From: Nitrospirota bacterium
GTDB lineage: Bacteria; Nitrospirota; Thermodesulfovibrionia; UBA6902
Direction: 5' to 3'
NCBI GenBank assembly: GCA_016234115.1
Contig: JACRHD010000060.1
Coordinates: 41,135-105,134, forward strand
DNA length: 64,000 nt
Positions within the stretch are counted from its first letter, which is position 1, and each line of letters begins with the position of its first letter. The notes beneath the pieces are model-generated. The model did no database searches and was not told where the DNA came from. It was given only the letters and a program-made list of their open reading frames with translations. Positions 4,631 to 35,158 of this stretch are shown here, piece after piece. The position numbers and the translations under genes are program-made.

Positions 4631-4633
4631 AAT

Positions 4634-4866: not shown

Positions 4867-4869
4867 CTA

Positions 4870-6069: not shown

Positions 6070-6079
6070 GAAAACTAAA

Positions 6080-6137: not shown

Positions 6138-6152
6138 TAAATGGAGTTACAT

Positions 6153-6635: not shown

Positions 6636-6716
6636 CAGACAGAAAAAGGGGCAAGGGTTAAGAAAGAACCGGTCCGGGTTTTTACCCTTGACCCCTGACC
6701 CTTGACCCTCAATACT

Positions 6717-7382: not shown

Positions 7383-7385
7383 TTC

Positions 7386-7645: not shown

Positions 7646-7655
7646 ACAAATTCTT

Positions 7656-10097
7656 ATGCAAACATGTGACCACTGCTTACTTCAATTCCCGGACAGAGAA
7701 GCAGTCTACGGGGAAATCAAAGGCCGGAGACAGGTCTTCTGCTGTCACGGATGTATGGGTATTTTCAGTCTGATTAATGATGAGGGACTCGAAGAGTTTT
7801 ATGAGAAACGAGACTCATGGCTGCCCGGCCCCGCTTCCGACAAGCCGTGGAACGCAGCGGCCTTTACGGAACACGTGCGACAGGCCGGGAATGAACTCGA
7901 AACCGAAGTGGTCCTCGACGGCATAAGATGCGCCTCCTGCGTCTGGCTGAATGAGAAGGTCCTGGACAGGACAAAGGGAGTGACATTCGTCAGCGTCAAT
8001 TATGCCACTCATCGGGCAAGGATACGCTGGAGACCTGAAGACACCGGCCTTGATACAATCCTCAGAAGGATTGCGTCAATCGGATATACGCCTAAACCTC
8101 CTGTTGCAGCGGCATATGAAGAAGACTTGAAGGCCGGTCAGAAAGACCTTCTGATACGCCTTGGGACAGCCTCATTTTTTTCAATGCAGCTTATGCTGTA
8201 TTCCACTGCCCTTTACGCGGGATATTTCCAGGGGATTGATGAACGCACAAAAGACATTTTCCATCTCATCTCGCTGATGCTTACAACCCCCGTGCTTTTT
8301 TATTCCGGCTTTCCTTTCATAAATGGAGCGGCAAGGGGATTGCGAAACCGGGTATTCAATATGGACCTGCTTATTGTTACAGGGGCGGGCTCCGCATACC
8401 TGTACAGCATGTTCCAGATGTTTTCAGGCGGGAAGGTATATTTCGACACTGCCGCCATGATAATAACCCTCATCCTTTTAGGCAGATATATAGAGGCCGG
8501 GGCAAAGAGTAAGGCTTCACAAACAATAATCAGGCTCCTGTCTTTAAGTCCGAAGGAAGCGAAGAAAATAAAGGGGCAAGGGGCAAGGAGCAAGGGTCAA
8601 GGGTGGGGAGACACAGATTTCGAAACAGTCCTGATATCTTCTATAAAGCCGGGCGAATTGATTCAGGTGGCCCCGGGCGAGAAGATACCGCTTGACGGCA
8701 TTATGGTATCAGGATCATCAGAGGTCGATGAATCCATGCTTACAGGTGAATCAAGGCCTGTATCGAAGACAGAGGGCGCTGAGGTTTTCTGTGGTACGCA
8801 AAACTTATACGGTAACATCATTTTCGAAGTCAACAGGACCTCCGCGGACACTGTTCTTTCACAGATCATAAAGGTCGTCGGAGATGCGCAGGCGCGGCGC
8901 GCTCCGTTTCAAATGTTTGCGGACAGGGTTGTCGGCTTCTTTGTGCCGTCTGTCCTTCTTCTGAGTATCATGACATTTGCGTACCGCTTTTTAAACGGCA
9001 GCCCGGCCACCGAGGCACTGATGATTTCCATCTCCGTCCTCGTGATAGCCTGCCCGTGCGCCTTAGGTCTTGCAACGCCCCTTGCCGTACTCGCGGGCAC
9101 AACACGCGCCGCGTCAAAAGGCATATTGATCAAAGGCGGTGACGTAATAGAAATAGCAAAGAATATAGACCTTGCAGTCCTGGACAAGACAGGCACCATA
9201 ACAGAAGGCCGCCCCCTCCCCGGCCCGTTCATGACCAGAGGTCTTTCAGAAACAGAAGCCCTCAGCATCGCAGCGTCGCTTGAACGCCATTCCGAGCATT
9301 CGATAGGAAAGGCGATAGCCGGCGCGGCAAAGGGCCTTGAATTGCATGAAGTAACAGGCTTTACTGCGCATCCCGGCAAAGGAGTAAAGGGAGAGGTAAA
9401 CGGGAAGATAGCCCTCATTGGCAACAGGAGCTTCCTGGAATCTGAGGGAATCGATCTCAACCCGGACCATAGTATTCTCTCTGAATCCGTATCCCTCGAA
9501 TCAGCCGGAGCTACTGTTGTTTATTTATCTTATGACGGAGAATTCGCCGGGATATTTTCGGTGTCGGACGCCGTGCGGAAAGAAGCTGCGGAAGCAGTCC
9601 GGCTATTGCAACAGGAAGGTCTTGATGTGGAGATGATAACAGGAGATAATGGTATAACAGCATCGGCGGCGGCAAAGGATGCCTGGATAAATGAAGTAAA
9701 GGCCCGGATGTCTCCTGTTGAAAAGGCCGGTGAGATCAAAAGGATGCAGGATGTAGGAAGGCATGTGATGATGGTAGGTGACGGAATCAACGACGCTCCT
9801 GCGCTGGTGCAGGCCGACATAGGTATCGCGATGGGCAAGGGCACAGACATTGCCCTTGAAAGCTCCGACATGGTGCTGATGAGAGACGACCTCCGTCTTC
9901 TTCCCGAAGCCCTAAGCATTGCGAAAAAGACCTTCTCCGTGATCAGGCAGAATATCTTCTGGGCCTTCTTCTATAACGTGCTCGCGATTCCTCTTGCGAT
10001 AACAGGCGTCCTTCACCCTATTGCCGCAGCCGGCGCCATGGCGTTCAGCTCGTTGAGCGTGGTGGGGAATTCGTTGAGATTGTTGAGGATAAAATAA
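7656..10097 (+). CDS. ccoI: copper-translocating P1B-type ATPase CcoI/FixI
   Basis: Has the N-terminal CDHC...CCHGC motifs and an HMA-like 'GIRCASCV' motif. It also has the CPC motif (IACPCALGLATP), DKTGT, and the GDGINDAP hinge. 813 aa. Confidence 0.85.
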   Translation: MQTCDHCLLQFPDREAVYGEIKGRRQVFCCHGCMGIFSLINDEGLEEFYEKRDSWLPGPASDKPWNAAAFTEHVRQAGNELETEVVLDGIRCASCVWLNEKVLDRTKGVTFVSVNYATHRARIRWRPEDTGLDTILRRIASIGYTPKPPVAAAYEEDLKAGQKDLLIRLGTASFFSMQLMLYSTALYAGYFQGIDERTKDIFHLISLMLTTPVLFYSGFPFINGAARGLRNRVFNMDLLIVTGAGSAYLYSMFQMFSGGKVYFDTAAMIITLILLGRYIEAGAKSKASQTIIRLLSLSPKEAKKIKGQGARSKGQGWGDTDFETVLISSIKPGELIQVAPGEKIPLDGIMVSGSSEVDESMLTGESRPVSKTEGAEVFCGTQNLYGNIIFEVNRTSADTVLSQIIKVVGDAQARRAPFQMFADRVVGFFVPSVLLLSIMTFAYRFLNGSPATEALMISISVLVIACPCALGLATPLAVLAGTTRAASKGILIKGGDVIEIAKNIDLAVLDKTGTITEGRPLPGPFMTRGLSETEALSIAASLERHSEHSIGKAIAGAAKGLELHEVTGFTAHPGKGVKGEVNGKIALIGNRSFLESEGIDLNPDHSILSESVSLESAGATVVYLSYDGEFAGIFSVSDAVRKEAAEAVRLLQQEGLDVEMITGDNGITASAAAKDAWINEVKARMSPVEKAGEIKRMQDVGRHVMMVGDGINDAPALVQADIGIAMGKGTDIALESSDMVLMRDDLRLLPEALSIAKKTFSVIRQNIFWAFFYNVLAIPLAITGVLHPIAAAGAMAFSSLSVVGNSLRLLRIK

Positions 10098-20355: not shown

Positions 20356-20433
<78 letters not shown>

Positions 20434-20481: not shown

Positions 20482-21627
20482 CTAAAAAAAATCCCGGGCG
20501 CCTGCATATTCTGATCTCTTCCGGTCGATGCCGGTGTACCTCTGTTGATCATTGCAGGACTGTTTTGCCTTATATGCAATTAATTTTTCTTTTTGATCTT
20601 TGACGTGCTGATTGATGTTATCACTATTTATAAGCACGCCAAAATCCGCCGGGACCGGGGTCCCGGAGCAATTGGTCATCCTGCATACAATCAAATCGCC
20701 GACTATAGTCCTGTAATGCGATGTCTCATAATAATAATAATTGCTGGTCGTGACGGAGTTGATCCCGCTGAAGTCCCAATAATCGGTAATTTGGGCCAAT
20801 TTTTCCTTGAACAGCAGGAACCGGCACGGATCACTCTGCAAGTAAAACTTATAATGGGTCGGACTTATAAAAAAATACACGTTGAAATTATATGCTTCGG
20901 ACAGCTCTATAATTTCGTCGATATCCCGGATTGTGTCGTTTATCAAGTTCAGATAGTCGCGCTCAGCCTGCCCGCTGAACGGGTCATTGACTTCGTTAAA
21001 ACGTTCGTTATTCAAATGGCCTTCAATATTGCTTTCTATTTTCGCGTCAACTTTTTTCAGGTCCTGCATGCCGTCTTCGGGAATGCCGAATGTTACCAAC
21101 GGTTCATTATTCTTAAACCGCATATATCTGCCGATGCCGATCCGGGGCGCGGCGCACAGATACTTGATCTGGAAAATTATTCTCCTGAAGACCGATTCGT
21201 CGTACGGATGCCTCAATATCTGGCCCCTGTGATCGTCCGGCCTGAATGCATAGGATGTATTGTCCAGTCCGATAATTATGTTCTTTACAGGCAGACCTTC
21301 TTGAAGCATGATCCTGATATCTGCAAGGTGTTCGCCCGGGACGCCTTCCGAATAATTCATATTATAATATTTGCCGCCCGGTATTAAGGCGGGATTAATT
21401 TTCCCTACCCGGGAAGAACCGAATAAAAAAGAATCCCATGCATGTTTATCTTTAATAATATGCCGCATTTTCGCGTAGTGCTGATTAGGCTCATAGCCGG
21501 GCTCATAAGCCAAATCCTCCCCCGTGATCCTGAAAATTCCATACGGATCGGTCAGATAATTGTAGGACGCAACAGATATGATCGTGATCGAGGTCAGGAC
21601 AATTATTTTCAGGTAAATCCGCTTCAT
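20482..21627 (-). CDS. DltD/AlgJ-like (SGNH-type) protein partner of the MBOAT acyltransferase
   Basis: Has an N-terminal signal/anchor (MKRIYLKIIVLTSITIISVA) and a 'LFGSSRV' motif. It sits directly downstream of the MBOAT gene, where dltD and algJ normally lie. The family assignment is tentative. Confidence 0.4.
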   Translation of the reverse strand: MKRIYLKIIVLTSITIISVASYNYLTDPYGIFRITGEDLAYEPGYEPNQHYAKMRHIIKDKHAWDSFLFGSSRVGKINPALIPGGKYYNMNYSEGVPGEHLADIRIMLQEGLPVKNIIIGLDNTSYAFRPDDHRGQILRHPYDESVFRRIIFQIKYLCAAPRIGIGRYMRFKNNEPLVTFGIPEDGMQDLKKVDAKIESNIEGHLNNERFNEVNDPFSGQAERDYLNLINDTIRDIDEIIELSEAYNFNVYFFISPTHYKFYLQSDPCRFLLFKEKLAQITDYWDFSGINSVTTSNYYYYETSHYRTIVGDLIVCRMTNCSGTPVPADFGVLINSDNINQHVKDQKEKLIAYKAKQSCNDQQRYTGIDRKRSEYAGARDFF

Positions 21628-21687
21628 TCTATAATGTTTCAGTTAAAAGGAGGCGGAAACATCATATCCGCCGCCGGGTAATAAAGA

Positions 21688-23208
21688 CTAAAATTGGAAA
21701 TAAATAAATTGCTGCCCGACATCGGAAGCAAAAAAGATCATTATTAAAACAGAGCCGTAATATATCGACCAGCGAACAATAAGCGGTTTTGTCAAAAAAG
21801 CTTTTTCAATATCCGCCCTGCTCTGCGCGAAATGTATAAGCTCCAGCAGACCGATCAGGAACAGGCAGAAGATAAATTCCGAATCCGAAATTCCGAGGCC
21901 TTTGCCGAATATCGCGGCCCGAATGTTTGCCTTCATTACAATCAGCTCGTATATCGTCACGAATGTGCCGGTTATGCCGTGTGATAAAATGTAAACCGCG
22001 TCTGAAAGGCTGTTCGCCCTGAAAAAAATCCAGCCCGCGCAGACTATGCAGAACATGATGAACATGTTTACTGCGTTTCCGAAGGGGTTGTTTTCCACTA
22101 CGAGGTTTCTGATAACGGGGTTTTTGATACTGCGTGAATGCGCATTCGCATATTCCCTGATTTTATTATAGCCAATTATTACCATTCCCCAGTATACGCC
22201 GAAAACCACAAAAGTCCAGTTCGCGCCGTGCCACAGGCCGATCAGGGTCATTGCATAAAAATGCGCCTTATATTTGTTGAACATGCCGCCGGCCTTTCTC
22301 ATGTAATGCATTGCCATAGGAAAATAGAGGTAATCCTGAAACCATCTTGATAAACTGATATGCCACCTCTGCCAGAACTCCACGGGATTTTTTGAGTAAT
22401 AAGGCAAATTAAAATTCATTGTTATGTTGAATCCGATCGTTCTCGCCACTCCCCTGGCTATATCGGAATAACCTGAAAAATCACAGTAGATCTGGACCGC
22501 AAAAAAGAAGGTCGCGATGACCAGGGGGACCCCGGTATAATCGTGCGCGTTGTTGAACACCGTGTCCACAAGCACGGCGACCCTGTCGGCGATTATGACC
22601 TTTTTAAACATACCCCAGGCCGAAAGCCTTAAACCTGAAGCCACCGAATTGTATTCAAAAGTCCTTTTCTTCTTTATCTGCGGAAGCAGGTTTGTGGCCC
22701 TCTCGATGGGTCCGGCCACCAACTGGGGGAAGAACGCGACATAAAGCGCATAGTCGAGAAAATTCTTTTCCGGCTTCAGTTTCTTCCTGTAGATATCAAT
22801 GTAATAACTCATCGACTGAAAGGTATAGAAAGAGATGCCGATCGGCAAAATTATCTTAAGCGTCGATATGTTTTCCCTGAGCCCCAGCATGGACAGCAGG
22901 GCAGAAGCTTCAGCAATGAAAAAGCCGGCGTATTTAAAAAAGCCCAGCATGCCGAGACTCGCAAACAGACCTAACAGTAAAAAACGCTTTTTCCGTTTTT
23001 CATCCGCGCTTTCATCAATGAAAATTCCGCAATAATAATCAATAACGGTGCTGATGATCAACAGAGAAAGAAATTTCCAGTTCCAGCTTCCGTAAAAAAA
23101 ATAGCTCCCGGCAAGAAGAAACCTGTTCTGCAGCTTATGGGGTAGAACCCAGTATATGGCAAAGAAAAAACCGAAAAAGACCAGGAATTCCGTGCTATTG
23201 AACAGCAT
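21688..23208 (-). CDS. MBOAT-family membrane O-acyltransferase (DltB/AlgI-like)
   Basis: 506 aa and polytopic. It starts 'MLFNSTEFLVFF' as MBOATs do and carries the conserved His region (WHISLS..F). Its start overlaps the E2 stop by 1 nt. Confidence 0.85.
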   Translation of the reverse strand: MLFNSTEFLVFFGFFFAIYWVLPHKLQNRFLLAGSYFFYGSWNWKFLSLLIISTVIDYYCGIFIDESADEKRKKRFLLLGLFASLGMLGFFKYAGFFIAEASALLSMLGLRENISTLKIILPIGISFYTFQSMSYYIDIYRKKLKPEKNFLDYALYVAFFPQLVAGPIERATNLLPQIKKKRTFEYNSVASGLRLSAWGMFKKVIIADRVAVLVDTVFNNAHDYTGVPLVIATFFFAVQIYCDFSGYSDIARGVARTIGFNITMNFNLPYYSKNPVEFWQRWHISLSRWFQDYLYFPMAMHYMRKAGGMFNKYKAHFYAMTLIGLWHGANWTFVVFGVYWGMVIIGYNKIREYANAHSRSIKNPVIRNLVVENNPFGNAVNMFIMFCIVCAGWIFFRANSLSDAVYILSHGITGTFVTIYELIVMKANIRAAIFGKGLGISDSEFIFCLFLIGLLELIHFAQSRADIEKAFLTKPLIVRWSIYYGSVLIMIFFASDVGQQFIYFQF

Positions 23209-24290
23209 TATTTTCCCTGAAGCATGGTTGACAGCTCATTAAGCATGTCCGCAGCCATCATGCCATCCGCCATTTGATGATCAAAAGTCAGTATGCATTT
23301 AAAGCAGCCCGTCCCCGGCATTACCGCACAGACGCCGAGGATCGCGGATTGCATATTGTTTATTACAGGTATGAAATCAACGACTCCCCTCGACGAAATG
23401 TCCGTCACGGTAAAAGTCCCCCCAGCAAGATCATTCAATGCAAGTTCTTCCCTGAAATACCTGAGGCTGAGATCTTTTACCGTATTCGAGATGTCCTTCA
23501 CCGACATCTTATCGGCATTCCTGATCACCGGCACCTTCAGCCCCCTGCCCATATTTACGGCAAAACCGACATTGATCTCGCTGTAGACCGCGCAGACGTC
23601 TTTATCATAATAGCCGTTGAAGAGATTGTATTTCTTCAACAAACGGGACACGTTGTATATTATCAGCTCGCCGACGGCGGCCCGTACGCCTTCATTCTGA
23701 GAAATACTCCTGATATTCGCCTCAACCTTTTGAAAATCAATCATGACGCTCACACTGCTCGCTATTACCCGCCGGCTGCTTTCACGAAGTTGTCTTATCT
23801 CATATTTCTTTGCCGGACTTATTTCGACAATGTTTAAAGAAGGACAATTTTTGTCCCTGACGCCGGTCACGCTTTGAGGGCCTTTGGTTTGCAGGCCTTT
23901 TTCCGCGACCTTGGCCTTCACATCCTCGAGTTTGACTCTTACCATGCCCGCAAAGTCTTCATCCCGCAATCCATGTTCCTTCATTAATTTTGCGGCCTTG
24001 GCGGAAATGTCCAGCTTACCGTCGCGCGCCCTGCTCCCGTCGTTCACCCCGGCATCCGTCCTGATTTCGGGCATCCTGTTCTCTTTGCAAATATAAGCAA
24101 TTTCACTTCCGACCCTGACCTCATCCCCTTCCTTCACTTTATAGAAAAAGAAGCCGCTCTCTTCAGCTTCAATTTCAAATACCGCCTTCATGGTCTCCAG
24201 TGTTATTATGACTTCTCCCTTTTTGACCTCTTCCCCCGACGCAATATTCATCCTGACTATGGTTGCCACCTCGTCGTTGGTATTTTCCAT
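23208..24290 (-). CDS. dihydrolipoamide acyltransferase (E2 component of a 2-oxoacid dehydrogenase complex)
   Basis: Lipoyl domain (...LETMKA...), a peripheral-subunit-binding segment, and a catalytic domain ending in 'DHQMADG'. The start is uncertain: a TTG at 24344 would extend the ORF. Confidence 0.8.
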   Translation of the reverse strand: MENTNDEVATIVRMNIASGEEVKKGEVIITLETMKAVFEIEAEESGFFFYKVKEGDEVRVGSEIAYICKENRMPEIRTDAGVNDGSRARDGKLDISAKAAKLMKEHGLRDEDFAGMVRVKLEDVKAKVAEKGLQTKGPQSVTGVRDKNCPSLNIVEISPAKKYEIRQLRESSRRVIASSVSVMIDFQKVEANIRSISQNEGVRAAVGELIIYNVSRLLKKYNLFNGYYDKDVCAVYSEINVGFAVNMGRGLKVPVIRNADKMSVKDISNTVKDLSLRYFREELALNDLAGGTFTVTDISSRGVVDFIPVINNMQSAILGVCAVMPGTGCFKCILTFDHQMADGMMAADMLNELSTMLQGK

Positions 24291-24312
24291 TGGAACAATT
24301 ACGGCAAAACAC

Positions 24313-26277
24313 TCAGACACTGAATATCTCCTTGCAGCAATCAATAATGGTCTCCTTCGACGGCAGACATTCTTTTTCCATAGGGCCGGAACATGGAATC
24401 GGGATTTCCCCCGGGGAGACGCGACGGCTTATAAACGCCCCGGCGTCATCCCATTCTTCATTTATCCTGGCAATGACTTCAGCGCCTAAATTGAAGAACG
24501 AGGTCCCCTCTTCAACAACAATCAACTTGCGGGTCTTCTTTACTGAATCAAATACGGCCGAGATGTTCAACGGGCTCACGCTCAACGGGAATATGAGCTC
24601 AACAAGAATTTCTTCATCCCTGTACAATACTTCAGCGGCCTCTTCGGCAAGCAGCGCCATCCTGCCGAAAGCACAAATCGTAACGTCCGGCTCTCCATCG
24701 GATTTTACAACCGTTGTCGGATATGCCTCATCCGTCTCATAGACCTCAAATTCGTCTGTCGCCTCTCTGTCCCCTTTCACCGCGTATAACACCTTGTTTT
24801 CTATTATGACGGACGGATCTTTTATATTTTTAAACAACTCTGAATAAAACCGCGCTATATCTACCCGATGGTGCAGGATGTAGATATTAAGTCCCGGAAC
24901 GCCTACAATATGTTTCTCAAGGCTTTGGCTGTGAGTCGGCCCATACCCTCGCCCCGCGCCCATGGGGGTCCTGACGATCAGCGGGACAGACACCTGATCG
25001 TTATACATATGCCTGAATTTCGCGGCGTGATTGACAAGCTGATCAAAAGAGAGGGTAATAAAATCACCGAACATTATTTCTATAACCGGCTTATATCCGG
25101 CCAGGGCCAATCCGTTTCCGATGCCGACTATCCCGGCCTCGCTGATCGGCGTGTTCAGGACCCTCCCGGGAAAATCATCGGATAGTCCCTTCGTGACCTT
25201 GAACGCTCCGCCGTACGGCATCCTGATGTCTTCACCGAGAAGAATAATGCGACTGTCCTCCTTCAACCCGTCCGATAAAGCCTTATTGATGGCCTTCAGT
25301 TGAGTGTCGCCGCTTTTTGCCGCCCTTTTCAGAGAGGACAAATCAGGGAACGCCGTTCTTGCCGCATTTAGTCCGGCAAACTCCGACTGCTCCGCTTTTT
25401 CGACCGCATTTTTTATCCTGTCTGCGGCCTGACGGAGTTTCTCCTTTATTGCTTCATCATCTTTGTATTCATTTAAAAAAATATTTAACGGGTCTTTTTC
25501 TTCGTAATCCCTGATCTCGTTTATGTCTCTGTGGTCGTCGCCTTTTGAGTGCGCCCGCAGCCTGTACGTCAAGACCCTGAAAAAGACCGGCTCGCATTCT
25601 TTTCGCACATGGTCCGAGGCCCTTTTCATATCGGCAATAAGCTTCTCATATTCCCAGGTATTGCCTTCAAAGACCTTTATCCCGAAAGCCGACGCCCTGC
25701 CGGCGATTGAACCGGAAAGGGTCTCATGTTGTGATGTGGACTGGGAATAGCCGTTATCTTCCAGAACAATCAGCAAAGGGAGCGCCCATTTTGAGGCCAT
25801 GTTCATGGTTTCATACACTACACCTTGCCCCAGGGTCCCGTCTCCGATGCAAACTACGGTGATTGTGTCTTTTCCATCGAGCTTCTGTCCCAGCGCCATC
25901 CCCGCCGCAACAGGCGCTATCCCCCCCTGCACCCCGTTTGAAAAGAAGTTCCGTCCGCATAAATGCTGGCTGCCGCCTATCCCCCCGCAAATGCCGTTCG
26001 ACTTGCCCATAATCTCAGCCAACAGCCCTTCGATATCATTCGTCTTTGCGATATAATGCCCGTGACATCTGTGGTTTGAGAAAATCACGTCTTCATCATT
26101 TAACGCATTTGCAACGGCAAGCGCGGAAAACTCCTGCCCTACGCAGGTGTGGGTCGTTCCAAAGAGTTTCCCTTTGCGGTAGAGATCCAAAAGGGTCTCC
26201 TCCGTACATCTTATCGTATAGGCCTTTAAAAGAAAATCGTTCAAATCTTCCATGCGCTCGTTACATTCTCTGTTCAA
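24313..26277 (-). CDS. TPP-dependent 2-oxoacid dehydrogenase E1 component, fused alpha+beta subunits
   Basis: The N-terminal half is E1-alpha ('CIGDGTLGQG...LLIVLEDNGYSQST', the TPP GDG...N motif). The C-terminal half is E1-beta ('MPYGGAFKVTKGL...TPISEAGIVGIGNGLALAGYKP'). 654 aa. Confidence 0.8.
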   Translation of the reverse strand: MNRECNERMEDLNDFLLKAYTIRCTEETLLDLYRKGKLFGTTHTCVGQEFSALAVANALNDEDVIFSNHRCHGHYIAKTNDIEGLLAEIMGKSNGICGGIGGSQHLCGRNFFSNGVQGGIAPVAAGMALGQKLDGKDTITVVCIGDGTLGQGVVYETMNMASKWALPLLIVLEDNGYSQSTSQHETLSGSIAGRASAFGIKVFEGNTWEYEKLIADMKRASDHVRKECEPVFFRVLTYRLRAHSKGDDHRDINEIRDYEEKDPLNIFLNEYKDDEAIKEKLRQAADRIKNAVEKAEQSEFAGLNAARTAFPDLSSLKRAAKSGDTQLKAINKALSDGLKEDSRIILLGEDIRMPYGGAFKVTKGLSDDFPGRVLNTPISEAGIVGIGNGLALAGYKPVIEIMFGDFITLSFDQLVNHAAKFRHMYNDQVSVPLIVRTPMGAGRGYGPTHSQSLEKHIVGVPGLNIYILHHRVDIARFYSELFKNIKDPSVIIENKVLYAVKGDREATDEFEVYETDEAYPTTVVKSDGEPDVTICAFGRMALLAEEAAEVLYRDEEILVELIFPLSVSPLNISAVFDSVKKTRKLIVVEEGTSFFNLGAEVIARINEEWDDAGAFISRRVSPGEIPIPCSGPMEKECLPSKETIIDCCKEIFSV

Positions 26278-26482
26278 TTATGGAAATAATTCTGCCGATA
26301 CTGTTCATTTCCGTCGCATCAGAGCCGTCAAACCTTAAATTAAATTCCCTCTCCAGTGCCACGAGGAACTCAATATGCTTCATTGAATCCCATTTGCTCT
26401 CCGTCTCTCTGCTTAATTCACTGTTGAAAGCTATCGCTCCTTTAAAGACGTCCTCGAAAACTCTCCTGATCCGCTCTTGCAC
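26261..26482 (-). CDS. acyl/peptidyl carrier protein (ACP-like)
   Basis: 73 aa with 'DSMKHIEFLVALEREF'; the Ser in this DS(L/M) motif would carry the phosphopantetheine. Its stop overlaps the E1 start by 17 nt. Confidence 0.65.
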   Translation of the reverse strand: MQERIRRVFEDVFKGAIAFNSELSRETESKWDSMKHIEFLVALEREFNLRFDGSDATEMNSIGRIISIIEQRM

Positions 26483-26731: not shown

Positions 26732-28216
26732 TCATACATGCCTGTTTATAATCTCATGGGCAAATGCCATGATAGTCCCCTGTGGGTTCTTTCCGATGCT
26801 GGAAGGCAGCACGCTCGCATCCGTCACTAATATATTGTCCATTTTCCACAGCTTACCGTCGGGATTTACTGCAGACACGGCAGGATCGGTTCCCATAGGA
26901 CATGAAGCCATGATATGGACGGTAACAATCTCGAGATTTTCAGGTCTGACCCGGTCAAGGGTCTGTTCCAGCTCGGGAAGCGATCTGATCTTTCCGGCCC
27001 CGGTGACCGGCATATAGAGCTCAATCGCCCCGGCCTGAAACAGCAGCTTGGCCGTTCTCCTCAGGGCCAGCTTGATCATTGACAGGTCATCAGGATCAAA
27101 CCTGTATGTTACCAACGGCTGATCTCCAAACCGGCTTGAAATATGCGCGACGCTTTTGGGCCGGATCATGGCCGTAAAAATCCCCAGATTTTCATAATTG
27201 CTCAATACCGAATTGATTTCTTCATTAGTATGCTGAGACAGTGTCATGGCTACATAGTGACGTTTAATATTTGAAGCCATAATCAAAAGACCTTCACGGT
27301 CAAACTCCTGCATCTGCACCGTGAACATCGTGCCCTGCTCCGCGTTGAGTCTGTCTTTAAAGCGGGCGACGACTTTAAGGTTCATATGGAACTGAAGATT
27401 ACGACCGGCCAGGCCCGAAATTCCGCTGCGGCGCAGCAAATGGGGGGTCTGGACGGCGCCGCCTGCCACCACCAGGTGATCAAACGATATTTCGATGCGT
27501 TTTGGTCCTCCGCCCATGACACGTACTATAATTTTTCTCGCCTTCCCGCCGGAATGGATAATCCGGACGGCGCGACATCGTGAAAAAATACGGGCGCCGT
27601 TATTCAAGGCCCTCGGAAGGTATGTCACAAGGGCGCTCTGTTTGGCGCCTGATATGCACCCGGTCGGACACGAGTTGCCGTTCTTGCAATCATTGACCGC
27701 TCGCGTGGCCATATCGCATTTCCAGCCCAACTCTTCCGAAGCCTTCAGAAGTTTCATTGAATCGAGATTTCCATTTTCCTCAATTTCATGTCTTACTACA
27801 TGCAGGTCCCTTTCAACCGTCTCGAAATACTTCTTCAGTTCATTCAGACCATACCCTTTTAAACCATAATCATTCTGCCACTCGTCAAGGACCCAGGAAG
27901 GAGTATGACAAATCAGGGCGCCGTTTATAACGGTGCCGCCGCCGACACAACAACCTTCGGCGAGCGCGATGGATGGTTTGCCGAGAAGAGGGAATACTCC
28001 CCGGTTTCTATAAAGTTGCGCCGTCATTGCGCTGATATCGGAGGTGTAGGATTCAGTCGGAAAATATCCGCCTTCTTCCAGGAAAATGACGTCCCGTCCC
28101 CTCTCGGCAAGCAATGCCCCCGCCACGCTTCCCCCTGCGCCGGTCCCGACTATCAGATACTGACAGCGGTAAGCCTTTTCAGTATAGTCTTGTCTGTCCA
28201 GAATCGAGTCTTTCAC
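26732..28216 (-). CDS. GMC-family FAD oxidoreductase (choline/alcohol dehydrogenase-like)
   Basis: Has the N-terminal 'YLIVGTGAGGSVAGALLAE' FAD fold and a C-terminal GMC domain. Confidence 0.8.
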   Translation of the reverse strand: MKDSILDRQDYTEKAYRCQYLIVGTGAGGSVAGALLAERGRDVIFLEEGGYFPTESYTSDISAMTAQLYRNRGVFPLLGKPSIALAEGCCVGGGTVINGALICHTPSWVLDEWQNDYGLKGYGLNELKKYFETVERDLHVVRHEIEENGNLDSMKLLKASEELGWKCDMATRAVNDCKNGNSCPTGCISGAKQSALVTYLPRALNNGARIFSRCRAVRIIHSGGKARKIIVRVMGGGPKRIEISFDHLVVAGGAVQTPHLLRRSGISGLAGRNLQFHMNLKVVARFKDRLNAEQGTMFTVQMQEFDREGLLIMASNIKRHYVAMTLSQHTNEEINSVLSNYENLGIFTAMIRPKSVAHISSRFGDQPLVTYRFDPDDLSMIKLALRRTAKLLFQAGAIELYMPVTGAGKIRSLPELEQTLDRVRPENLEIVTVHIMASCPMGTDPAVSAVNPDGKLWKMDNILVTDASVLPSSIGKNPQGTIMAFAHEIINRHV

Positions 28217-28256: not shown

Positions 28257-28613
28257 TTAATGGTCCGGCGATAAGGGAAGGCTGTCAAACAGTTTCAAAA
28301 AAGCCATGGAGCGGACTAACTTGTTTAACATGCCGAAAGCAGGAATGAACCGGACGCTTCGCAGAAAGGAAGAGCGTTTTTCAGCCGGCAACAGGTTTAA
28401 TTTGCGTCCCGTAGTAATCAGACAGAGCAGGCCGGTTACAATGGCGAGAATTCTGACGGGTAAATGAAAATACCAGGGAAGGTTTGTTACTACATCGGAG
28501 ACGAACTGAAAGACGCCCTCCGCCGTATTGGAATTCCTTTTCTGCATGATTTGATACTGCCTCAAGGATTCTATGTTTTCCAGGACCATGCCTGCCAGCA
28601 CACTCTTCCACAT
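28257..28613 (-). CDS. hypothetical protein (possibly single TM)
   Basis: ORF-only call in the 435-nt gap between the GMC and aminotransferase genes. No motif recognised. Confidence 0.2.
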   Translation of the reverse strand: MWKSVLAGMVLENIESLRQYQIMQKRNSNTAEGVFQFVSDVVTNLPWYFHLPVRILAIVTGLLCLITTGRKLNLLPAEKRSSFLRSVRFIPAFGMLNKLVRSMAFLKLFDSLPLSPDH

Positions 28614-28652: not shown

Positions 28653-30086
28653 TTATTTCTTTAAAACTTTTTGTTTGAGAAAATTCAAAATTAAAGTAAG
28701 CTTGCCGATTGCCAATGTCCTGTCCAGGGCATCGAGAAACGTATCCAATTCTTCATCAGATACAATTAAAGAAGGCGAGATGATAAGAGATATTTCTCTA
28801 TTATCACCAAAGAACGTTAAAACATTATGCGCGCTGAAAAGTTCCGATATAACGGAACCGGTGATTAATTTGGACAGAAATCGTTCATCCTTAAACACCT
28901 TTGCAGGTATTAAACTGATTAAAGACTTGACAAATGAGTTGATATCTTTATTGAAAATGACCCCATGCAATGCCCCGCTGCCTCTTACGTCATTTATCAA
29001 GTCAGGGTATTTACCCTGAAGCCTCTTTAAACCGTTACTCAAACGCAGGTGAATTCTCTTTGACTTGCCGACGTAATCGTCATCAACAATTATATTGATT
29101 GCTTCTATGGCCGTTATGCATTCTTCGCCGAAACCGCTGAAAGTGGTGCTGTGCAACGTTGCTTCATTCAGATTATCATATGCCTTGCGAAATAAAGGAG
29201 TACGCGTCGTGTAACCGGATATTGAAGACTTGCCGCCTCCAAAGGATTTTGAGAAAGTGACAATGTCCGGGATCGCGCCTTTTCCGATGAAATTGAACAG
29301 CTCACCGGTCTTTGCCCAGCCGGTGTATACCTCGTCAAAGATCAGAATAATCCCCTCGCCGCTGCAAATTCCGCGCAGCTCTTTTAAGAAGTCCGCGGAA
29401 CATTCCCGTAGACTGCTAGCGCTGAAGGGCTCAAGGATTATGGCATAGATATCGGATTTCCCGTTGGGCTTACGAATCTTCGCGACAAGATCTTTAATAC
29501 TTTCAATATTGCCGTACTCAAAACATTCTATATTTGGAATGGTGGGGAAATTATATACCAATTCCGGCGAGCCTGTCAGTCCCGCGGCTCCCAATAATTT
29601 GCCGTGAAAGGATATGTCGGCGTGCAAAATATGTTTTCTGTCCCCGTCATGGTATTTATAAGCAAGCTTGACTGCCCCCTCCACTGCTTCAGCTCCGGAA
29701 TTGCAAAAGAAACTTATATTCAGATCTTCCGGCATCAGCCTGGCTATATTGTGACTTAACCCCGCAATATACGGCGACAGAAAATTCTTGTGGACCTCCA
29801 TCTTCTTCTGTTTCTGAAATTCCACTCGCGCGGCAAGTATCCGCGGATGGTTGTGTCCGTGATTAAGCACTCCTATCCCGCCGGTAAAATCGAGAATCTT
29901 CCGGCCGTCCGATGTGTAAATGTACATCCCCTCGGCATGGCTGGCAACCGCCCTGCCGAAACCGAAAGAACCGATCAATTCGACCTGGCTCTTGTTGAAA
30001 TATTCCCTGTACAGCTCCTGGATCTTTTCAATATCAAATTCCGCGCATTCCTGCCATCTGTATAATTTGCCTGTGGGGGGTTGCAT
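28653..30086 (-). CDS. class-III PLP aminotransferase (omega-aminotransferase family)
   Basis: 'GGIGVLNHGHNHP', 'DEVYTGWAKTG' and 'TFSKSFGGG' match the class-III aminotransferase fold. Confidence 0.8.
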   Translation of the reverse strand: MQPPTGKLYRWQECAEFDIEKIQELYREYFNKSQVELIGSFGFGRAVASHAEGMYIYTSDGRKILDFTGGIGVLNHGHNHPRILAARVEFQKQKKMEVHKNFLSPYIAGLSHNIARLMPEDLNISFFCNSGAEAVEGAVKLAYKYHDGDRKHILHADISFHGKLLGAAGLTGSPELVYNFPTIPNIECFEYGNIESIKDLVAKIRKPNGKSDIYAIILEPFSASSLRECSADFLKELRGICSGEGIILIFDEVYTGWAKTGELFNFIGKGAIPDIVTFSKSFGGGKSSISGYTTRTPLFRKAYDNLNEATLHSTTFSGFGEECITAIEAINIIVDDDYVGKSKRIHLRLSNGLKRLQGKYPDLINDVRGSGALHGVIFNKDINSFVKSLISLIPAKVFKDERFLSKLITGSVISELFSAHNVLTFFGDNREISLIISPSLIVSDEELDTFLDALDRTLAIGKLTLILNFLKQKVLKK

Positions 30087-30276: not shown

Positions 30277-31626
30277 CTAATCCATTCCTATCTGACCGGA
30301 CAGGGATGATCCCAACGGCACCATAGAAGACTTTATGCCGACTTTTCTGCAGGCCCGGGCCGCTGTCCTGATCGCATTATTACAGCTCCTTTCATCAGGA
30401 TAAATATGGCTCATGTTGACGACATACATATTCTTGACCGGGGTCTCACAATTCGGCACTATGCCGGAATAATTGAGTCCGCATATTGTTGCGGCCGTTT
30501 TCGCGCGAAAGACATAAGTATTTTTTATCCATGACTCATTGAACCGCGGGTTGATCCTGTTTAACGGCGCGATCATCCGATGCAGAATTTCACTGTTTGT
30601 CGCCGAGGCAATATCGGCATCACCGGCAAAGTATCTCGAAAGGTACAAAATATGACTGCCGTTATACTTGTCCGGGGATATAAAATTGGTATGCTCAATA
30701 ATTCCGCCGAAAGGGAACCCGGGGTCGGCAATGTTGAGCCAGTATATATGGCTGAGAGGTCGGTCCATCTCCAGGATGGTGCAAACTGCGCTGCTGTATC
30801 TGATTCGGGACAGTTCATCCGCATATTCAGATGCGGTCTCCCTTAATAATGGAGTTAGATGCGTCGCGGCTATCGTCGCAAGGAAAAGCCCGCCGGTATA
30901 CGGGCCTCTTGTTGTTTCCACCGCGCACAGCGTATTGGCCTTTATCACCAATTTTGTCAGCCGCGCGTTCAATATGATCTTTACCCCCAGGTTTGTCAAA
31001 CTTCTTTCGAGGGTGTCCGTCAATATCTGCAGACTTCCTTCAATATACCCGAGCTGCTCTCCTGTTCCCTTGCGGGAATTCATTCTCTGCTTAAGGCGTC
31101 CTACCATCCAGGCAGCAGGCACTTTGTCCGCATGGGAGCCGAACTTTATTTCAAGCAGCGGCCTCCATATCGAATCAGTAACATTCCTTCCGGTATATCT
31201 GTAAAACCATTCCAGGGCTGAAACGCCTTCCCATTTTCTCCAGTCCGTCAGCTTACCGAGATAAATACTGGTAAGAAGGAACCGTATTTTGTCCGCTGCG
31301 CCCAGAGGAGTGAACCCGAGGAGGTCTTTCAGTCCGTTGAAATCGTAGATTTTATTATTTCGGAATATGCCTACCGTTGTTTTTTTGAAATCAATCCTGT
31401 CACTTAAGTTCAATTCCCTTAATAACCACAACAGTTCCGCGTCATTGGTAAAACAGTGATGGTAGTAATGCTCCAACAGGCTGCCGCCGATCTGAAAAGT
31501 ACTCATTAAACCGCCTAACTGCGGGCCGCCTTCCAGCAAGGTCACTTCCCATCCGTCTTTGGCCGCAAGATAAGCAGAGGAAAGCCCTGTTATTCCTCCT
31601 CCGATAATGGTTATTTTCTTCCGCAT
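30277..31626 (-). CDS. FAD-dependent oxidoreductase (amine oxidase / phytoene desaturase superfamily)
   Basis: 'KKITIIGGGITGLSSAYLAAKDGWEVTLLE' is a Rossmann FAD-binding N-terminus. 449 aa. Confidence 0.7.
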   Translation of the reverse strand: MRKKITIIGGGITGLSSAYLAAKDGWEVTLLEGGPQLGGLMSTFQIGGSLLEHYYHHCFTNDAELLWLLRELNLSDRIDFKKTTVGIFRNNKIYDFNGLKDLLGFTPLGAADKIRFLLTSIYLGKLTDWRKWEGVSALEWFYRYTGRNVTDSIWRPLLEIKFGSHADKVPAAWMVGRLKQRMNSRKGTGEQLGYIEGSLQILTDTLERSLTNLGVKIILNARLTKLVIKANTLCAVETTRGPYTGGLFLATIAATHLTPLLRETASEYADELSRIRYSSAVCTILEMDRPLSHIYWLNIADPGFPFGGIIEHTNFISPDKYNGSHILYLSRYFAGDADIASATNSEILHRMIAPLNRINPRFNESWIKNTYVFRAKTAATICGLNYSGIVPNCETPVKNMYVVNMSHIYPDERSCNNAIRTAARACRKVGIKSSMVPLGSSLSGQIGMD

Positions 31627-31696: not shown

Positions 31697-32680
31697 TCAT
31701 AACGGGTTAGACGGCGGCTTTGTCGATAAGCCCAGGTGTTGTTTAATGATCCATCGGGGCCGCTGTTTGACTTCATCATAGATTCTTCCGAGATACTGCC
31801 CTATAATCCCCAAAAAGATCAGTTGAACTCCTCCGAGGAAAAGGATCGTGACGTGGGTTGAAAATCCGGGCTTGAGCCCTATCCCCAAAGATTCGAAAAA
31901 GTCCCTGAAAATATATTGCAGCACAAGTAAAATAATGCCGAGAAAAGACAAAGCTGAAGTCCATAAACCGATATTGGTAGCCATTGACAGTGGAAGAGTT
32001 GAAAAAGATATTATGCCGTCCAGGGCCAGACGGCGCAATCTTTTGAAATCATACTTTGACTCTCCGGCAGTCCTTGCGTGCCTTTCATAGGCGAGGCCTG
32101 TTTGCCTGAACCCGGCCCATGCCCTCAATCCCCGTACAAACCTGTTTCTCTCTGGCATGGTATTTAAGATATCGACTATCTTCCGGTCCATGATACAAAA
32201 GTCACCTGAGTCCAGCGGCAGATCAAAATCTATCATTCTCGACAATAACCGGTAGAACGTCCAGTAGCTGATTTTCTTGAGGATCCCTTCTTTCCGGTGC
32301 TCTCTGACTGCGTACACTATGTCGTAACCATCCAGCCACTTTTTTATAAAACGATGGATTTCTTCCGGCGGGTCCTGCAGGTCAGCGTCAATAACAATGA
32401 CCGCGTCCCCTGTCGCATGAAATATGCCGGCTGAAACCGCCGTCTGATGTCCGAAGTTGCGGGAAAAAGAAAGTGCGGACCATCTCGGGTCATTCGCGTG
32501 CTGGGTGCTCAGCAGCGCCCAGGTGTTGTCATGAGAACCGTCGTCGATGCAAATAATTTCCCAATCAACCCCCCAGCCTTCAGCCGCGTCCGTCATTCTC
32601 CGGAAAAGCTCAGGAAGCACATCCTGTTCATTATAACAGGGGATAACAACAGATATTTTATACTTTTCTCTTCCGTTCAT
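31697..32680 (-). CDS. GT2 polyprenyl-phosphate glycosyltransferase (GtrB/ArnC/DPM1-type, C-terminal 2 TM)
   Basis: 'VVIPCYNE', 'IICIDDGSHDNT', 'DADLQDPPE', and a C-terminal hydrophobic pair of helices. Confidence 0.8.
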   Translation of the reverse strand: MNGREKYKISVVIPCYNEQDVLPELFRRMTDAAEGWGVDWEIICIDDGSHDNTWALLSTQHANDPRWSALSFSRNFGHQTAVSAGIFHATGDAVIVIDADLQDPPEEIHRFIKKWLDGYDIVYAVREHRKEGILKKISYWTFYRLLSRMIDFDLPLDSGDFCIMDRKIVDILNTMPERNRFVRGLRAWAGFRQTGLAYERHARTAGESKYDFKRLRRLALDGIISFSTLPLSMATNIGLWTSALSFLGIILLVLQYIFRDFFESLGIGLKPGFSTHVTILFLGGVQLIFLGIIGQYLGRIYDEVKQRPRWIIKQHLGLSTKPPSNPL

Positions 32681-32717: not shown

Positions 32718-33419
32718 CTACACTTTTTTTCGGGAATAAATCTTGATAGGTGTATCCGGATTTTCATAATGCGAATAAACAACAGAGAAATTCTTTTTTG
32801 TTATAATGCCTTCGTTTTGAGGACCAAAATAAATTATGATACAATCAATAAGTTTGAGTTCGTCGAATTTATTCAACAGAATTTCCAGCATTTCATCCTT
32901 AAACGGCGCATACAGAAAAAATATCAGTGAATTCGTTTTCCGGTCCCTGCTGAAATCAGTTATTAAGTTCGGGAAATCGACATCTCTGACATTTTGATTA
33001 ACAATTTTCATTTTGGCATGAGGCGGTAAATATTTTTTGAGGTTTTGACTGCACAGCTCCGCGAGTTTATTGGATTGCTCAATCCCTATTAACCGGTTGA
33101 AGCCGATGGAGAACGAATAATACAGGGCCCTGCCCGGACCACATCCGATGTCAAAAAAGATTGAATCCTGAAAATCGGTTACTATATTTTTCAGTTGATT
33201 CAGGGACTTGGTAAGGATAAAATACGGGGCGGGCACGTAAGGATCGGAGAGCCTGCTGTCTTCATCACTGATATCCAGTTCCTGAGGCTCAACGACAAAA
33301 AAATATTTAAACCCGGGATGTCTTATCAAAAAAAACAGTTCATAAACGGATCCGATGATTAATGGTTTTAATCCCCAATCATTTTTTGTCTTGATGACCT
33401 GTTTTATTATTGAAATCAA
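32718..33419 (-). CDS. class I SAM-dependent methyltransferase
   Basis: 'FFDIGCGPGRALYY' is motif I. The segment is markedly AT-rich. Confidence 0.6.
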   Translation of the reverse strand: MISIIKQVIKTKNDWGLKPLIIGSVYELFFLIRHPGFKYFFVVEPQELDISDEDSRLSDPYVPAPYFILTKSLNQLKNIVTDFQDSIFFDIGCGPGRALYYSFSIGFNRLIGIEQSNKLAELCSQNLKKYLPPHAKMKIVNQNVRDVDFPNLITDFSRDRKTNSLIFFLYAPFKDEMLEILLNKFDELKLIDCIIIYFGPQNEGIITKKNFSVVYSHYENPDTPIKIYSRKKV

Positions 33420-33568: not shown

Positions 33569-35158
33569 ATGAAACCATATAAGACGTATTTTGAAGATAA
33601 ATATGAAATATGCATATATGGCCTACTGTTCATATCAGCCCTCGCGGCCGCCCTCCTTGCAGTAAAAAATATAAGAATATCTCCTGACTCGATGATATAT
33701 GCGCTGATTTCACAGGAGATACGGTCCGGCAATGGAATAACACTGCCGATAATTTATGATCTGAACGACAATTACGCCTTTATCGACGGGGCGGTCCCGT
33801 ATCTCGCTCAGCCCCCCCTTCTGCCGATGCTTTTCGCCTTATTGGGCGGGGTCACACCGCAAAATTTCCTGGCCGCACAGATAATTAATGTGATCAGTCA
33901 TGTGGCTACTGCGTTTTTCAGTTTTCTCTTAATGAAAAAATTATACGATAATAAGGCCGTTGCCCTGCTGACCGGGATACTCGTCTCCGTTTCCCTTCCT
34001 CTGGTGTCTAATGCCCACTCCATGTTGAGTGAATCGTTATTTGTCGCATTAACGACTGCGGCGTTATATTTTATAGTCTTGACGCGACATTCCGGCGGTC
34101 ATCAGTCAATCCGATATTATTTCATTGCGAGTATCTGCGCCGGCGCCGCTATTTCAACAAGGTTTGCCGGAGTGGCCCTGATACCAGTATTTTTGTGGGA
34201 AGTCTTTGTCCTGGTAAGGAACAAAAGCATAAAGTCAAAAGGCGCGGCCGCCGTCTTATCGGCAATGCTGCCTCTGATTGCCATCGGAGCGCTTTTCATT
34301 CGTAACTACTTTGTGTCGGGCACAATAGTAGGCTGGAACCCATATGCTTCCGAGAGGCCTTATACCGAAGCCCTTACAGGCACTTTGAAGATGCTATTTC
34401 TGCAATTTCAATTAGGAGGACATCTTGTTGCGCCGTTCATGGCGGCATCTGTTTTATTTATTCTGTATATTGTCGCGACTACTGATGGAAGAAAAAAAAT
34501 GACAGAGTGCGTTCATTCAGGACTGGACCTGCTTGTAGTTTTCATGCTGAGCTATACGGCGCTGATTACTCATGCACTGGCCAGGGTGCAGCCGCTTTTT
34601 GAAGTGCGATATATTTCTCCTTTGGCGCCTTTCTTATTTATAATTTGTATTCTTGTCATCGTTGTTTTATGGGACGTGATAAGATTTAAAGGGTTCTCCA
34701 AACTATCATTATTCGGAATGATATTGTCTCTCGGCATAATAATATTCGGTAATCTTTATAAGACGTGCTTGAATGCGGAGCCGTTATTTTCCCGTCAGAC
34801 CGGGCATTACCGGATACTGAATTCCCCTACGTACAACTGGATTAAACAGAATTATGATGAAGACGTCGTCATTACGACCAACAGACCGTTTCATCTCAGC
34901 TTTTTCGGGGGATATCCGACGGTAAGATTATCGCACAGGAGATTTAACAGGAATGATTATCTTCCTGATAACATGGAATCATTTCTGCCGGCCCGAATGT
35001 CCAGATTCGGATCGCGGGTGCTTGTCTTGTTTGAAGAAGTAGATGAGCAGAATGAAGGAAGTTATCTTACGGGACTGTTCAATAAGAGAGAAGGCGACGA
35101 CCGCTTTGTATTAATGCAAAAATTACCTGACGGGGTCATATATAATCTCAAGGAATAA
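33569..35158 (+). CDS. GT-C fold membrane glycosyltransferase (ArnT/PMT-like)
   Basis: 529 aa. The N-terminal polytopic region has many TM helices. A periplasmic C-terminal domain follows. The family call comes from topology and context. Confidence 0.5.
   Translation: MKPYKTYFEDKYEICIYGLLFISALAAALLAVKNIRISPDSMIYALISQEIRSGNGITLPIIYDLNDNYAFIDGAVPYLAQPPLLPMLFALLGGVTPQNFLAAQIINVISHVATAFFSFLLMKKLYDNKAVALLTGILVSVSLPLVSNAHSMLSESLFVALTTAALYFIVLTRHSGGHQSIRYYFIASICAGAAISTRFAGVALIPVFLWEVFVLVRNKSIKSKGAAAVLSAMLPLIAIGALFIRNYFVSGTIVGWNPYASERPYTEALTGTLKMLFLQFQLGGHLVAPFMAASVLFILYIVATTDGRKKMTECVHSGLDLLVVFMLSYTALITHALARVQPLFEVRYISPLAPFLFIICILVIVVLWDVIRFKGFSKLSLFGMILSLGIIIFGNLYKTCLNAEPLFSRQTGHYRILNSPTYNWIKQNYDEDVVITTNRPFHLSFFGGYPTVRLSHRRFNRNDYLPDNMESFLPARMSRFGSRVLVLFEEVDEQNEGSYLTGLFNKREGDDRFVLMQKLPDGVIYNLKE

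Follow-up and report, generated by a model that had tools for sequence, protein, structure and literature searches.

Five minus-strand open reading frames (ORFs) at positions 20482-26482 of a 64-kb stretch of DNA from a Nitrospirota bacterium (contig JACRHD010000060.1, positions 41,135 to 105,134; the whole stretch is called the window hereafter) encode an acyl carrier protein (ACP), a fused E1 alpha/beta protein dependent on thiamine diphosphate (ThDP), an E2 acyltransferase, a membrane-bound O-acyltransferase (MBOAT) as well as a membrane-anchored protein of the SGNH fold. These genes probably constitute one module, to which we give a probability of about 0.6 and which would acylate an envelope glycan outside the membrane, the acyl-ACP being made without ATP or coenzyme A (CoA). 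In the best-supported reading of the sequence, E1 and E2 would stand in place of the DltA ligase of Dlt systems, loading the adjacent carrier that feeds the MBOAT and its SGNH partner. This idea is favored because the five genes occur together, because no ligase and no E3 is encoded nearby, and because the clade of E1 and E2 is linked to phosphopantetheine.

The carrier protein and its putative loading enzymes

The five ORFs listed by an earlier sequence-only reading of the window were all found on the minus strand at the coordinates it gave, and two of the junctions it described have to be amended. The ACP gene (26261..26482, 73 aa) was said to overlap the start of E1, which holds if E1 begins at TTG 26277 (17-nt overlap with the ACP stop at 26261) but not if it begins at ATG 26253, which leaves a 7-nt spacer; the ATG appears the more likely start, since the resulting protein of 646 aa (24313..26253) equals in length the homologue of locus L001, described below. 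The junction between E1 and E2 is indeed tight, but the E2 start placed at 24290 lies 10 codons short. The GTG at 24320, which reproduces the NCBI-annotated E2 of 370 aa (an identical protein; 23208..24320, within a longer ORF at 23208-24344), overlaps the E1 stop (TGA, 24313-24315) by 8 nt. The overlap between the E2 stop and the start of the MBOAT gene (21688..23208, 506 aa) is borne out, the sequence at 23208 reading TAATG. A 60-nt spacer separates the MBOAT stop (21688) from the start (21627) of the gene for the SGNH-like protein (20482..21627, 381 aa with an N-terminal transmembrane helix), and a tRNA-Pro(CGG) gene (20357-20433, minus strand), 48 nt downstream of the latter, marks the end of the cluster. 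Base composition across the tRNA boundary is unremarkable and there is therefore no clear sign of an island at the cluster boundary, and scans for promoter and terminator consensus sequences yielded no more matches than shuffled sequence did. The window belongs to a metagenome-assembled genome (MAG) of inconsistent taxonomic assignment, identical proteins in public records being labeled "Planctomycetes bacterium" for E2 and "Nitrospirae bacterium" for the SGNH protein and the ACP; an exact-sequence look-up of the window MBOAT returned no record.

Searches with hidden Markov models (HMMs), which had been recommended along with that reading, support the E1, E2 and MBOAT calls in Pfam, while the PP-binding match of the 73-aa protein is borderline (E=1.3e-3, just under the Pfam cut-off). 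Despite this score the protein is an ACP, because the evidence from matches in the PDB, from modeling and from fold comparison agrees. A phmmer search of the PDB finds ACPs only, the best being the Geobacter holo-ACP 2LML (E 5e-5), on which a literature search found nothing useful; an AlphaFold2 model (pLDDT 93) folds into a bundle of four helices, with the N-terminus of helix II occupied by Ser33; and the top Foldseek matches of this model are all ACPs (TM-score 0.77-0.86). The NCBI annotation is likewise acyl carrier protein. Ser33 (codon 26384..26386, minus strand, as are all residues of the module located below) is the predicted 4'-phosphopantetheine site. It lies in the motif W-D-S-M-K-H, and the pattern W-[DT]-S-[ML]-x-H, with the Ser invariant, is kept in 16 distinct module ACPs, which also have in common a striking RFDGxDA motif. 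A predicted phosphopantetheinylatable Ser, the absence of which had been named as grounds for abandoning the proposal, is thus present and conserved.

The E1 protein contains E1_dh (8e-45), Transket_pyr (5e-30) and Transketolase_C (8e-18) domains in Pfam, and alignment places its ThDP/Mg-binding motif at G137-D-G139 ... N167-x-Y169 (25747..25845), the G-x-G and the Asn being invariant in 63 aligned E1 sequences. In E2, Pfam recognizes Biotin_lipoyl (3e-11) and 2-oxoacid_dh (5e-39). The predicted lipoylation site Lys45 (codon 24186..24188, in an E-T-x-K-A context) and the catalytic His348 of DHxxxDG (codon 23277..23279; DHQMADG in the window), which aligns with the DHR of a solved E2, are both invariant in 32 homologues. 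The linker at residues ~98-150 (window 23850-24020) is a shortened and divergent peripheral subunit-binding domain (PSBD) that lacks the GTGxxG loop and is missed by Pfam, whereas the top matches of its family profile are the PSBD structures 1W4I and 2EQ9 (E 6e-4). With these structures recovered and with Lys45 and His348 kept, E2 is complete, comprising a lipoyl, a shortened PSBD and a catalytic domain. Both proteins nevertheless fall far under every curated NCBIfam equivalog cut-off for pyruvate dehydrogenase (PDH), 2-oxoglutarate dehydrogenase (OGDH) and acetoin dehydrogenase, E1 scoring 214 bits against the 394 required by PDH_E1_alph_y and 211 against 321 for E1 beta, and E2 scoring 113 against 445.

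The closest annotated relatives of the window E1 come from biosynthetic clusters. In a tblastn comparison with 507 records of annotated plasmids, the best match was RenH of the renieramycin cluster (46% identity, 99% coverage), followed at 41% identity by a cassette of a Streptomyces nonribosomal peptide synthetase (NRPS) cluster, annotated as ACP / E1 alpha / E1 beta / E2, whose ACP carries W-T-S-L-K-H; canonical rhizobial E1s reached 35-38%. In a neighbor-joining tree rooted on two canonical plasmid-borne E1s and without QncN, the module E1s form one clade with RenH, the Streptomyces cassette, an E1 fused to a polyketide synthase (PKS) and E1s linked to a phosphopantetheinyl transferase (PPTase). 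A pattern scan restricted to one genome per species gave 80 loci, which were scored with HMMs built from the module proteins. In 43 of these 80 loci, the gene directly 3' of E2 encodes a protein of 210-320 aa that carries an ACPS domain and ends in a hydrophobic tail. Elsewhere, E2 is itself fused to carrier-containing synthases, as in a Dormiibacterota MAG, where a fused E1 precedes a lipoyl-E2-C-A-T-TE protein comprising an NRPS module (L022:7926-13595), and in the cultured Ruminiclostridium sufflavum DSM 19573, where it precedes a lipoyl-E2-KS-DH-KR-ACPx3 fusion (L070:7971-15143); in locus L068, E2 adjoins an A-T-PglD fusion. Through these NRPS and PKS fusions and the adjoining PPTase-domain genes, the wider clade of fused E1 and short E2 is tied to phosphopantetheine chemistry throughout.

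The export half and the recurrence of the gene set

In Dlt systems, DltB moves D-Ala from the carrier DltC to the Tyr of an FXYXXF motif in the microprotein DltX, from which DltD then takes it; in PatA and AlgI types the same acyl-shuttle motif, with its role defined, is fused to the MBOAT's C-terminus (PMC12148441). The window MBOAT (Pfam MBOAT, 3e-14) has DltB structures (6BUG, 8JEM) as its only PDB sequence matches (E 2e-24), with the RWHISLS and LWHG His motifs aligned. However, it reaches only 166 bits against NCBIfam LTA_dltB (TIGR04091), under half of the cut-off of 375. Its last six codons (21691..21708) read F-I-Y-F-Q-F, a fused FXYXXF motif whose Tyr would be the covalent acyl carrier, and this ending is found in all full-length module MBOATs but that of locus L018 (FIYFNF), four copies cut by a contig end or a frameshift being excluded from the count. 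No DltX microprotein is encoded, and the spacer from MBOAT to SGNH, at 60 nt, is too short for one. The fused motif, the lack of DltX and the missed DltB cut-off make the export half Pat/Alg-like in layout; its putative donor would be Dlt-like. The earlier description of a Dlt-like module is thus to be corrected for the export half, which is not strictly Dlt-like, its MBOAT being of the PatA/AlgI type.

The 381-aa SGNH-like protein has no match in Pfam or NCBIfam. It carries Ser72 (codon 21412..21414) in a G-S-S-R motif and Glu301-x-x-His304, of which His304 is conserved as well. Ser72, invariant in 45 homologues, would occupy the block-I position of the SGNH fold and is the predicted acyl-enzyme nucleophile, and a Foldseek search with the modeled partner (type A) gives DltD structures as top matches. 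Three types of SGNH-like partner (A, B and C) were distinguished among the loci, with no mutual BLAST match, and their equivalence rests on the GSS and xxH motifs together with position and, for type A, on the model. Weak GDSL and DUF1574 hints appeared solely in the SGNH analogues of other loci. In L001, the locus most closely related to that of the window, a second and different SGNH-like gene with a canonical G-D-S (L001:8556-9692) directly follows the first, and after it come genes for a methyltransferase and a GtrA-like protein. A single SGNH gene, followed by the tRNA, is all that the window holds.

The survey of E1/E2 neighborhoods for ACP and MBOAT genes that the sequence-only reading had called for bears out their co-occurrence. 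Homologues of E2 at 69, 45, 40 and 37% identity lie in loci L001, L002/3, L004/5 and L007, respectively, and in each of these loci the same type of ACP is accompanied by a fused E1, by an MBOAT and by a protein that is anchored at its N-terminus and has GSS and xxH motifs. Gene orders include ACP-E1-E2-MBOAT-SGNH, SGNH-ACP-E1-E2-MBOAT, and MBOAT-ACP-E1-E2 next to an SGNH gene in the opposite orientation. As the same gene set recurs, with its order shuffled, in at least five arrangements across phyla, the arrangement is not due to chance. The ACP gene stands directly upstream of E1 in every module locus, with a 4-nt overlap in three homologous loci and abutting in L007. An MBOAT gene is present in all 13 loci of the genome scan that have a module-type ACP (Pirellulales, Steroidobacteraceae, other Gammaproteobacteria and one "Proteobacteria" MAG), as well as in four metagenome loci, and the set was also seen in Nitrospirota and Planctomycetota MAGs. 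Among the remaining ~67 loci, just three have an MBOAT. These are all from Opitutaceae, including the cultured Horticoccus sp. 23ND18S-11 (L054), and show the variant order MBOAT-E1-E2-[ACPS PPTase-domain protein]-SGNH-like.

This constancy bears on the possibility that the loaded ACP serves a cytoplasmic enzyme, for example in N-acylation of an amino sugar or a lipid precursor, while the MBOAT and SGNH proteins separately O-acetylate the same glycan from acetyl-CoA. Such a division of labor would suit the sister-clade cassettes of E1, E2 and PPTase-domain protein, which adjoin Hexapep/PglD-like proteins, an A-T-PglD fusion or LPG_synthase_TM and no MBOAT, and in the window a class-III aminotransferase and a GMC oxidoreductase could create an amine for acylation. 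We nonetheless consider it improbable, given that the MBOAT is the sole constant partner of this ACP type, that neither the five-gene unit nor the conserved neighborhood of the module loci offers another acyltransferase, and that the start-stop overlap of E2 and MBOAT indicates co-translation.

The statement that no adenylating enzyme is present was upheld for the window, where a Pfam scan of all large ORFs and a motif scan found neither an AMP-binding enzyme nor an E3; nor did a motif scan find an AMP-binding signature within 8 kb of any module locus. A motif scan for the E3 disulfide motif was also negative, both in the 64-kb window and within 8 kb in the module loci, whereas E3 adjoins the more distant canonical loci L073, L075, L076 and L085. 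Pfam scans of the window found no NRPS or PKS genes.

The proposed route and the acyl group

In the proposed mechanism, E1 would form a ThDP-bound two-carbon (or other short) intermediate and reductively acylate the lipoyl group on Lys45 of E2, after which the catalytic domain of E2, with His348, would hand the acyl group on, not to CoA but to the phosphopantetheine thiol that Ser33 of the ACP bears. The dihydrolipoyl arm would be re-oxidized by an E3 or another oxidoreductase encoded elsewhere. The MBOAT would take the acyl group from acyl-ACP at the cytoplasmic face, as DltB does with DltC, and hand it to the Tyr of its own FIYFQF on the outer face, as PatA does, from where Ser72 of the SGNH partner would collect it and deliver it to a glycan, at a hydroxyl (or an amine). 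This glycan is presumably the product of the surrounding genes for glycosyltransferases, sugar dehydratases, epimerases and aminotransferases. The sequence-only reading had held that an E2 might acylate a carrier in principle. Its core idea is kept, but the step is not new in kind, as E2-to-ACP transfer is the established function of the Qnc and Nap cassettes and has been proposed for those of the Ren, Scl and pepteridine pathways (PMC6335953, PMC5384830, PMC13249901), and RenH is the nearest annotated relative of the window E1. Priming by PDH-like enzymes can be directed to a carrier arm instead of CoA, with the host supplying E3 (PMC5384830).

Several points weigh against this route. The modification of the ACP and the transfers from E2 to ACP and from ACP to MBOAT are read from homology and gene linkage. 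No E3 lies nearby although turnover needs re-oxidation of the lipoyl group, and a PSBD-like segment of the kind found in ordinary complexes is retained in E2. The MBOATs with fused FXYXXF that have been studied use acyl-CoA (PMC12148441), and the same SGNH family also pairs with MBOATs that have no ACP, E1 or E2 beside them (L008, and L009 with ALGX-domain genes); for both reasons the window MBOAT could accept acyl-CoA too. In view of the L008 and L009 pairs, the loading cassette has the look of an accessory to an MBOAT-SGNH pair of the general kind, which seems plausible in that acyl-CoA and acyl-ACP would present the same phosphopantetheine thioester. Furthermore, mis-assembly is conceivable, since nearly every module locus stems from a MAG, though independent assemblies agree.

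The complete domain set of E1 and E2 including the PSBD-like segment, the fused shuttle motif of a PatA/AlgI type whose studied members use acetyl-CoA, and the related MBOAT-SGNH pairs without ACP would all be expected if E1 and E2 were a divergent pyruvate, acetoin or branched-chain dehydrogenase that makes acyl-CoA for a PatA-like MBOAT, with the ACP incidental or in another role. We regard this as very improbable. The ACP gene would hardly stand directly upstream of E1 in every module locus across phyla, the equivalog scores are far too low, and E3 is adjacent in the canonical loci and not within 8 kb of the module; the clade, moreover, is fused or adjacent to PKS and NRPS carriers and PPTase-domain proteins, and its E1 groups with RenH and the Scl/Qnc-like cassette. 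An ordinary PDH, in particular, was rejected as a candidate on the coupling to the ACP, the lack of a nearby E3, the sub-cut-off scores and the carrier links of the clade. The sequence-only reading had conceded that its proposal would fall if the pair proved to be an ordinary pyruvate or acetoin dehydrogenase, and the scores, the grouping with RenH and the missing E3 all speak to the contrary.

If the architecture of ACP loading by E1 and E2 is accepted, the acyl group may be glycolyl (hydroxyacetyl), derived from a ketose phosphate or hydroxypyruvate, a tentative assignment to which we give somewhat less than an even chance. Glycolyl leads because the nearest annotated relatives of E1 serve glycolyl-ACP pathways and because a loading cassette of its own would be most useful to an acyl group for which no CoA pool exists. 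The NRPS cassettes of the Qnc/Nap type make glycolyl-ACP from ketose phosphates (PMC6335953, PMC5384830, PMC13249901), and in the Ren pathway RenH and RenI correspond to the Qcn enzymes by which ketosugars are turned into a glycolyl unit (PMC13249901). It weighs against the assignment that it rests on relatives of 41-46% identity and that only the Qnc and Nap enzymes, and not RenH, have been characterized.

A group made from a 2-oxoacid, such as acetyl, propionyl or a branched acyl group, is also possible. With the same architecture, the sole source of the acyl group could be a 2-oxoacid that is oxidatively decarboxylated (pyruvate for acetyl, 2-oxobutyrate for propionyl, or a branched-chain substrate); this would agree with the best scores of the E1 halves, which are against E1 alpha/beta models and structures of the PDH type, and with the pepteridine, N-acyl amide and pristinamycin pathways, in which PDH-like E1/E2 have been proposed to prime carriers from 2-oxoacids (PMC5384830). 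This source appears rather unlikely to us, considering that the nearest relative RenH and the basal Scl/Qnc-like cassette serve pathways with ketose-derived glycolyl and that, with acetyl-CoA abundant, a dedicated acetyl-ACP cassette would seem redundant. The donor driven by a 2-oxoacid, as put forward in the sequence-only reading, is accordingly retained as possible, while homologues using ketose phosphates, and so giving glycolyl-ACP, point elsewhere.

Genomic setting and comparison with known systems

Genes for glycosyltransferases, flippases and export are abundant in the window and in the related loci alike. Directly upstream of the module, a GMC oxidoreductase (26732-28216) is followed on the minus strand by an unassigned 118-aa protein (28257-28613), a class-III aminotransferase (28653-30086), a PRK07233-type FAD oxidoreductase (30277-31626; 446 bits, above the cut-off), an ArnC/PgfS-like family 2 glycosyltransferase (GT2; 31697-32680) and a methyltransferase (32718-33419), and then, in divergent orientation on the plus strand, by an ArnT/PMT-like GT-C protein (33569-35158). 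In neomycin biosynthesis, a GMC oxidase and a class-III transaminase (NeoQ and NeoB) turn the 6-OH of a sugar into 6-NH2. By analogy, the upstream genes may form a pathway for a polyprenyl-phosphate-linked amino sugar, the product of which would then be acylated by the MBOAT module. A GMC oxidoreductase is also found near the module in L004 and L007, the copy in L007 having a small subunit with a Tat signal.

The envelope-glycan region continues through 35341-64000, with several GT2 genes and with genes for a CapD-like dehydratase, epimerases, an NDP-hexose 2,3-dehydratase, two DegT aminotransferases, a polysaccharide deacetylase, a carbamoyltransferase, a hexapeptide acyltransferase, a HAD-UbiA fusion and a YfhO-like protein. 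B12-binding radical SAM enzymes are encoded at two places (42516-43925 and 49027-50484), and the long ORFs at 38054-39751 and 53678-55249 have no Pfam match. At the other end of the window, a cluster for a cbb3-type cytochrome oxidase (20-10097; CcoN, a CcoO/P fusion, FixG, FixH, a DsbD-like protein and a copper P-type ATPase), adjoined by genes for rubrerythrin, a flavodiiron protein and BioW/BioB-like proteins, suggests a microaerophilic lifestyle.

The cassette of E1, E2 and PPTase-domain protein that occupies 43 of the 80 loci (L019, L024, L026, L029, L031, L054 and ~37 more; e.g., L054:9362-10219) occurs in glycan clusters of Planctomycetota, Verrucomicrobiota, Elusimicrobiota, Acidobacteriota, Chloroflexota, Actinomycetota, Bacteroidota and Spirochaetota, and we know of no description of it. 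In its PPTase-domain protein, an N-terminal domain of ~85 aa, in which one Ser is invariant, precedes the AcpS-type PPTase domain, and a hydrophobic helix forms the C-terminus. To the eye, the ~85-aa domain resembles a carrier, which is a conjecture; compared with the module ACPs by hhalign it scored weakly (E 0.08), and its profile found no ACP in the PDB. It is conceivable, at odds that we would put below even, that a widespread and so far unrecognized branch of the 2-oxoacid dehydrogenase/transketolase enzymes loads carriers for envelope glycans, with one lineage working through MBOAT and SGNH proteins on, e.g., O-glycolyl groups from a ketose of the pentose phosphate pathway, and its sister lineage, that of the 43 loci, through a membrane-anchored AcpS-type PPTase protein.

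Compared with PDH, branched-chain 2-oxoacid dehydrogenase and acetoin dehydrogenase, the window enzymes have the same E1 domains with a ThDP motif and the same succession of lipoyl, PSBD-like and catalytic DHxxxDG segments in E2, and differ in their low equivalog scores, the lack of a nearby E3, their separate E1 clade and the ACP gene coupled upstream. The likeness is closer to the cassettes of the quinocarcin (QncN/QncL/QncM), naphthyridinomycin (NapB/NapD), renieramycin (RenH/RenI) and scleric acid (SclQ1-4) pathways, in which a small ACP, a ThDP-dependent E1 and a lipoyl E2 are likewise adjacent, with no E3 in the cluster, and the product is acyl-S-ACP and not acyl-CoA. The Streptomyces cassette even has the order ACP-E1-E2, and W-[DT]-S-[LM]-K-H is common to its ACP and that of the window. 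E1 is fused in the window as in RenH and split in the Qnc and Scl cassettes. The difference lies in the consumer, an NRPS condensation domain there and an MBOAT-SGNH pair here, and in the setting, a secondary-metabolite cluster there and envelope glycan genes here. The module would thus move a loading cassette known only from the NRPS pathways of antitumor alkaloids into the primary biology of the envelope, and in several phyla.

Like the Dlt system (DltA, DltC, DltB, DltX and DltD), the module has an anchored SGNH partner outside the membrane, and, to judge by gene linkage, its carrier may as a thioester be the donor for the MBOAT. Unlike Dlt, it has no DltA-type ligase nearby and no DltX, FXYXXF being fused to the MBOAT; its carrier resembles ACPs of the fatty acid synthase type, DltC being absent from the top 50 fold matches; its predicted acyl group is not an amino acid; and its host would be of a diderm lineage without teichoic acids. 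The PatA/PatB, AlgI/AlgJ/AlgX and WssH/WssI systems use acetyl-CoA and no carrier protein (PMC12148441), whereas here a dedicated ACP and its loading enzymes are genetically tied to the pair. Both halves therefore have a precedent, in loading of the Qnc type and in export of the Dlt/Pat type. The sequence-only reading had already set their combination apart from the Dlt, Alg and Pat systems described so far. In agreement with this, the combination does not fit the published dichotomy (PMC12148441), and literature searches for an MBOAT with an ACP and a dehydrogenase found no description of it.

That dichotomy, drawn in 2025, separates Dlt, in which a ligase-loaded carrier is the donor, from all other MBOAT-SGNH pathways, which use acyl-CoA and no carrier protein (PMC12148441). 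If the proposed route is correct, the glycan should carry an ester, perhaps glycolyl, for which the standard CoA pool could not serve, and the module lends itself to tests of how an MBOAT discriminates between acyl-CoA and acyl-ACP; genetic tests are feasible, as the cultured Opitutaceae isolate Horticoccus sp. 23ND18S-11 carries the variant. Next to the two recognized kinds, the module of the window would represent a third, in which an MBOAT of the PatA/AlgI type is combined with a carrier donor loaded by ThDP and lipoyl chemistry without ATP or CoA.

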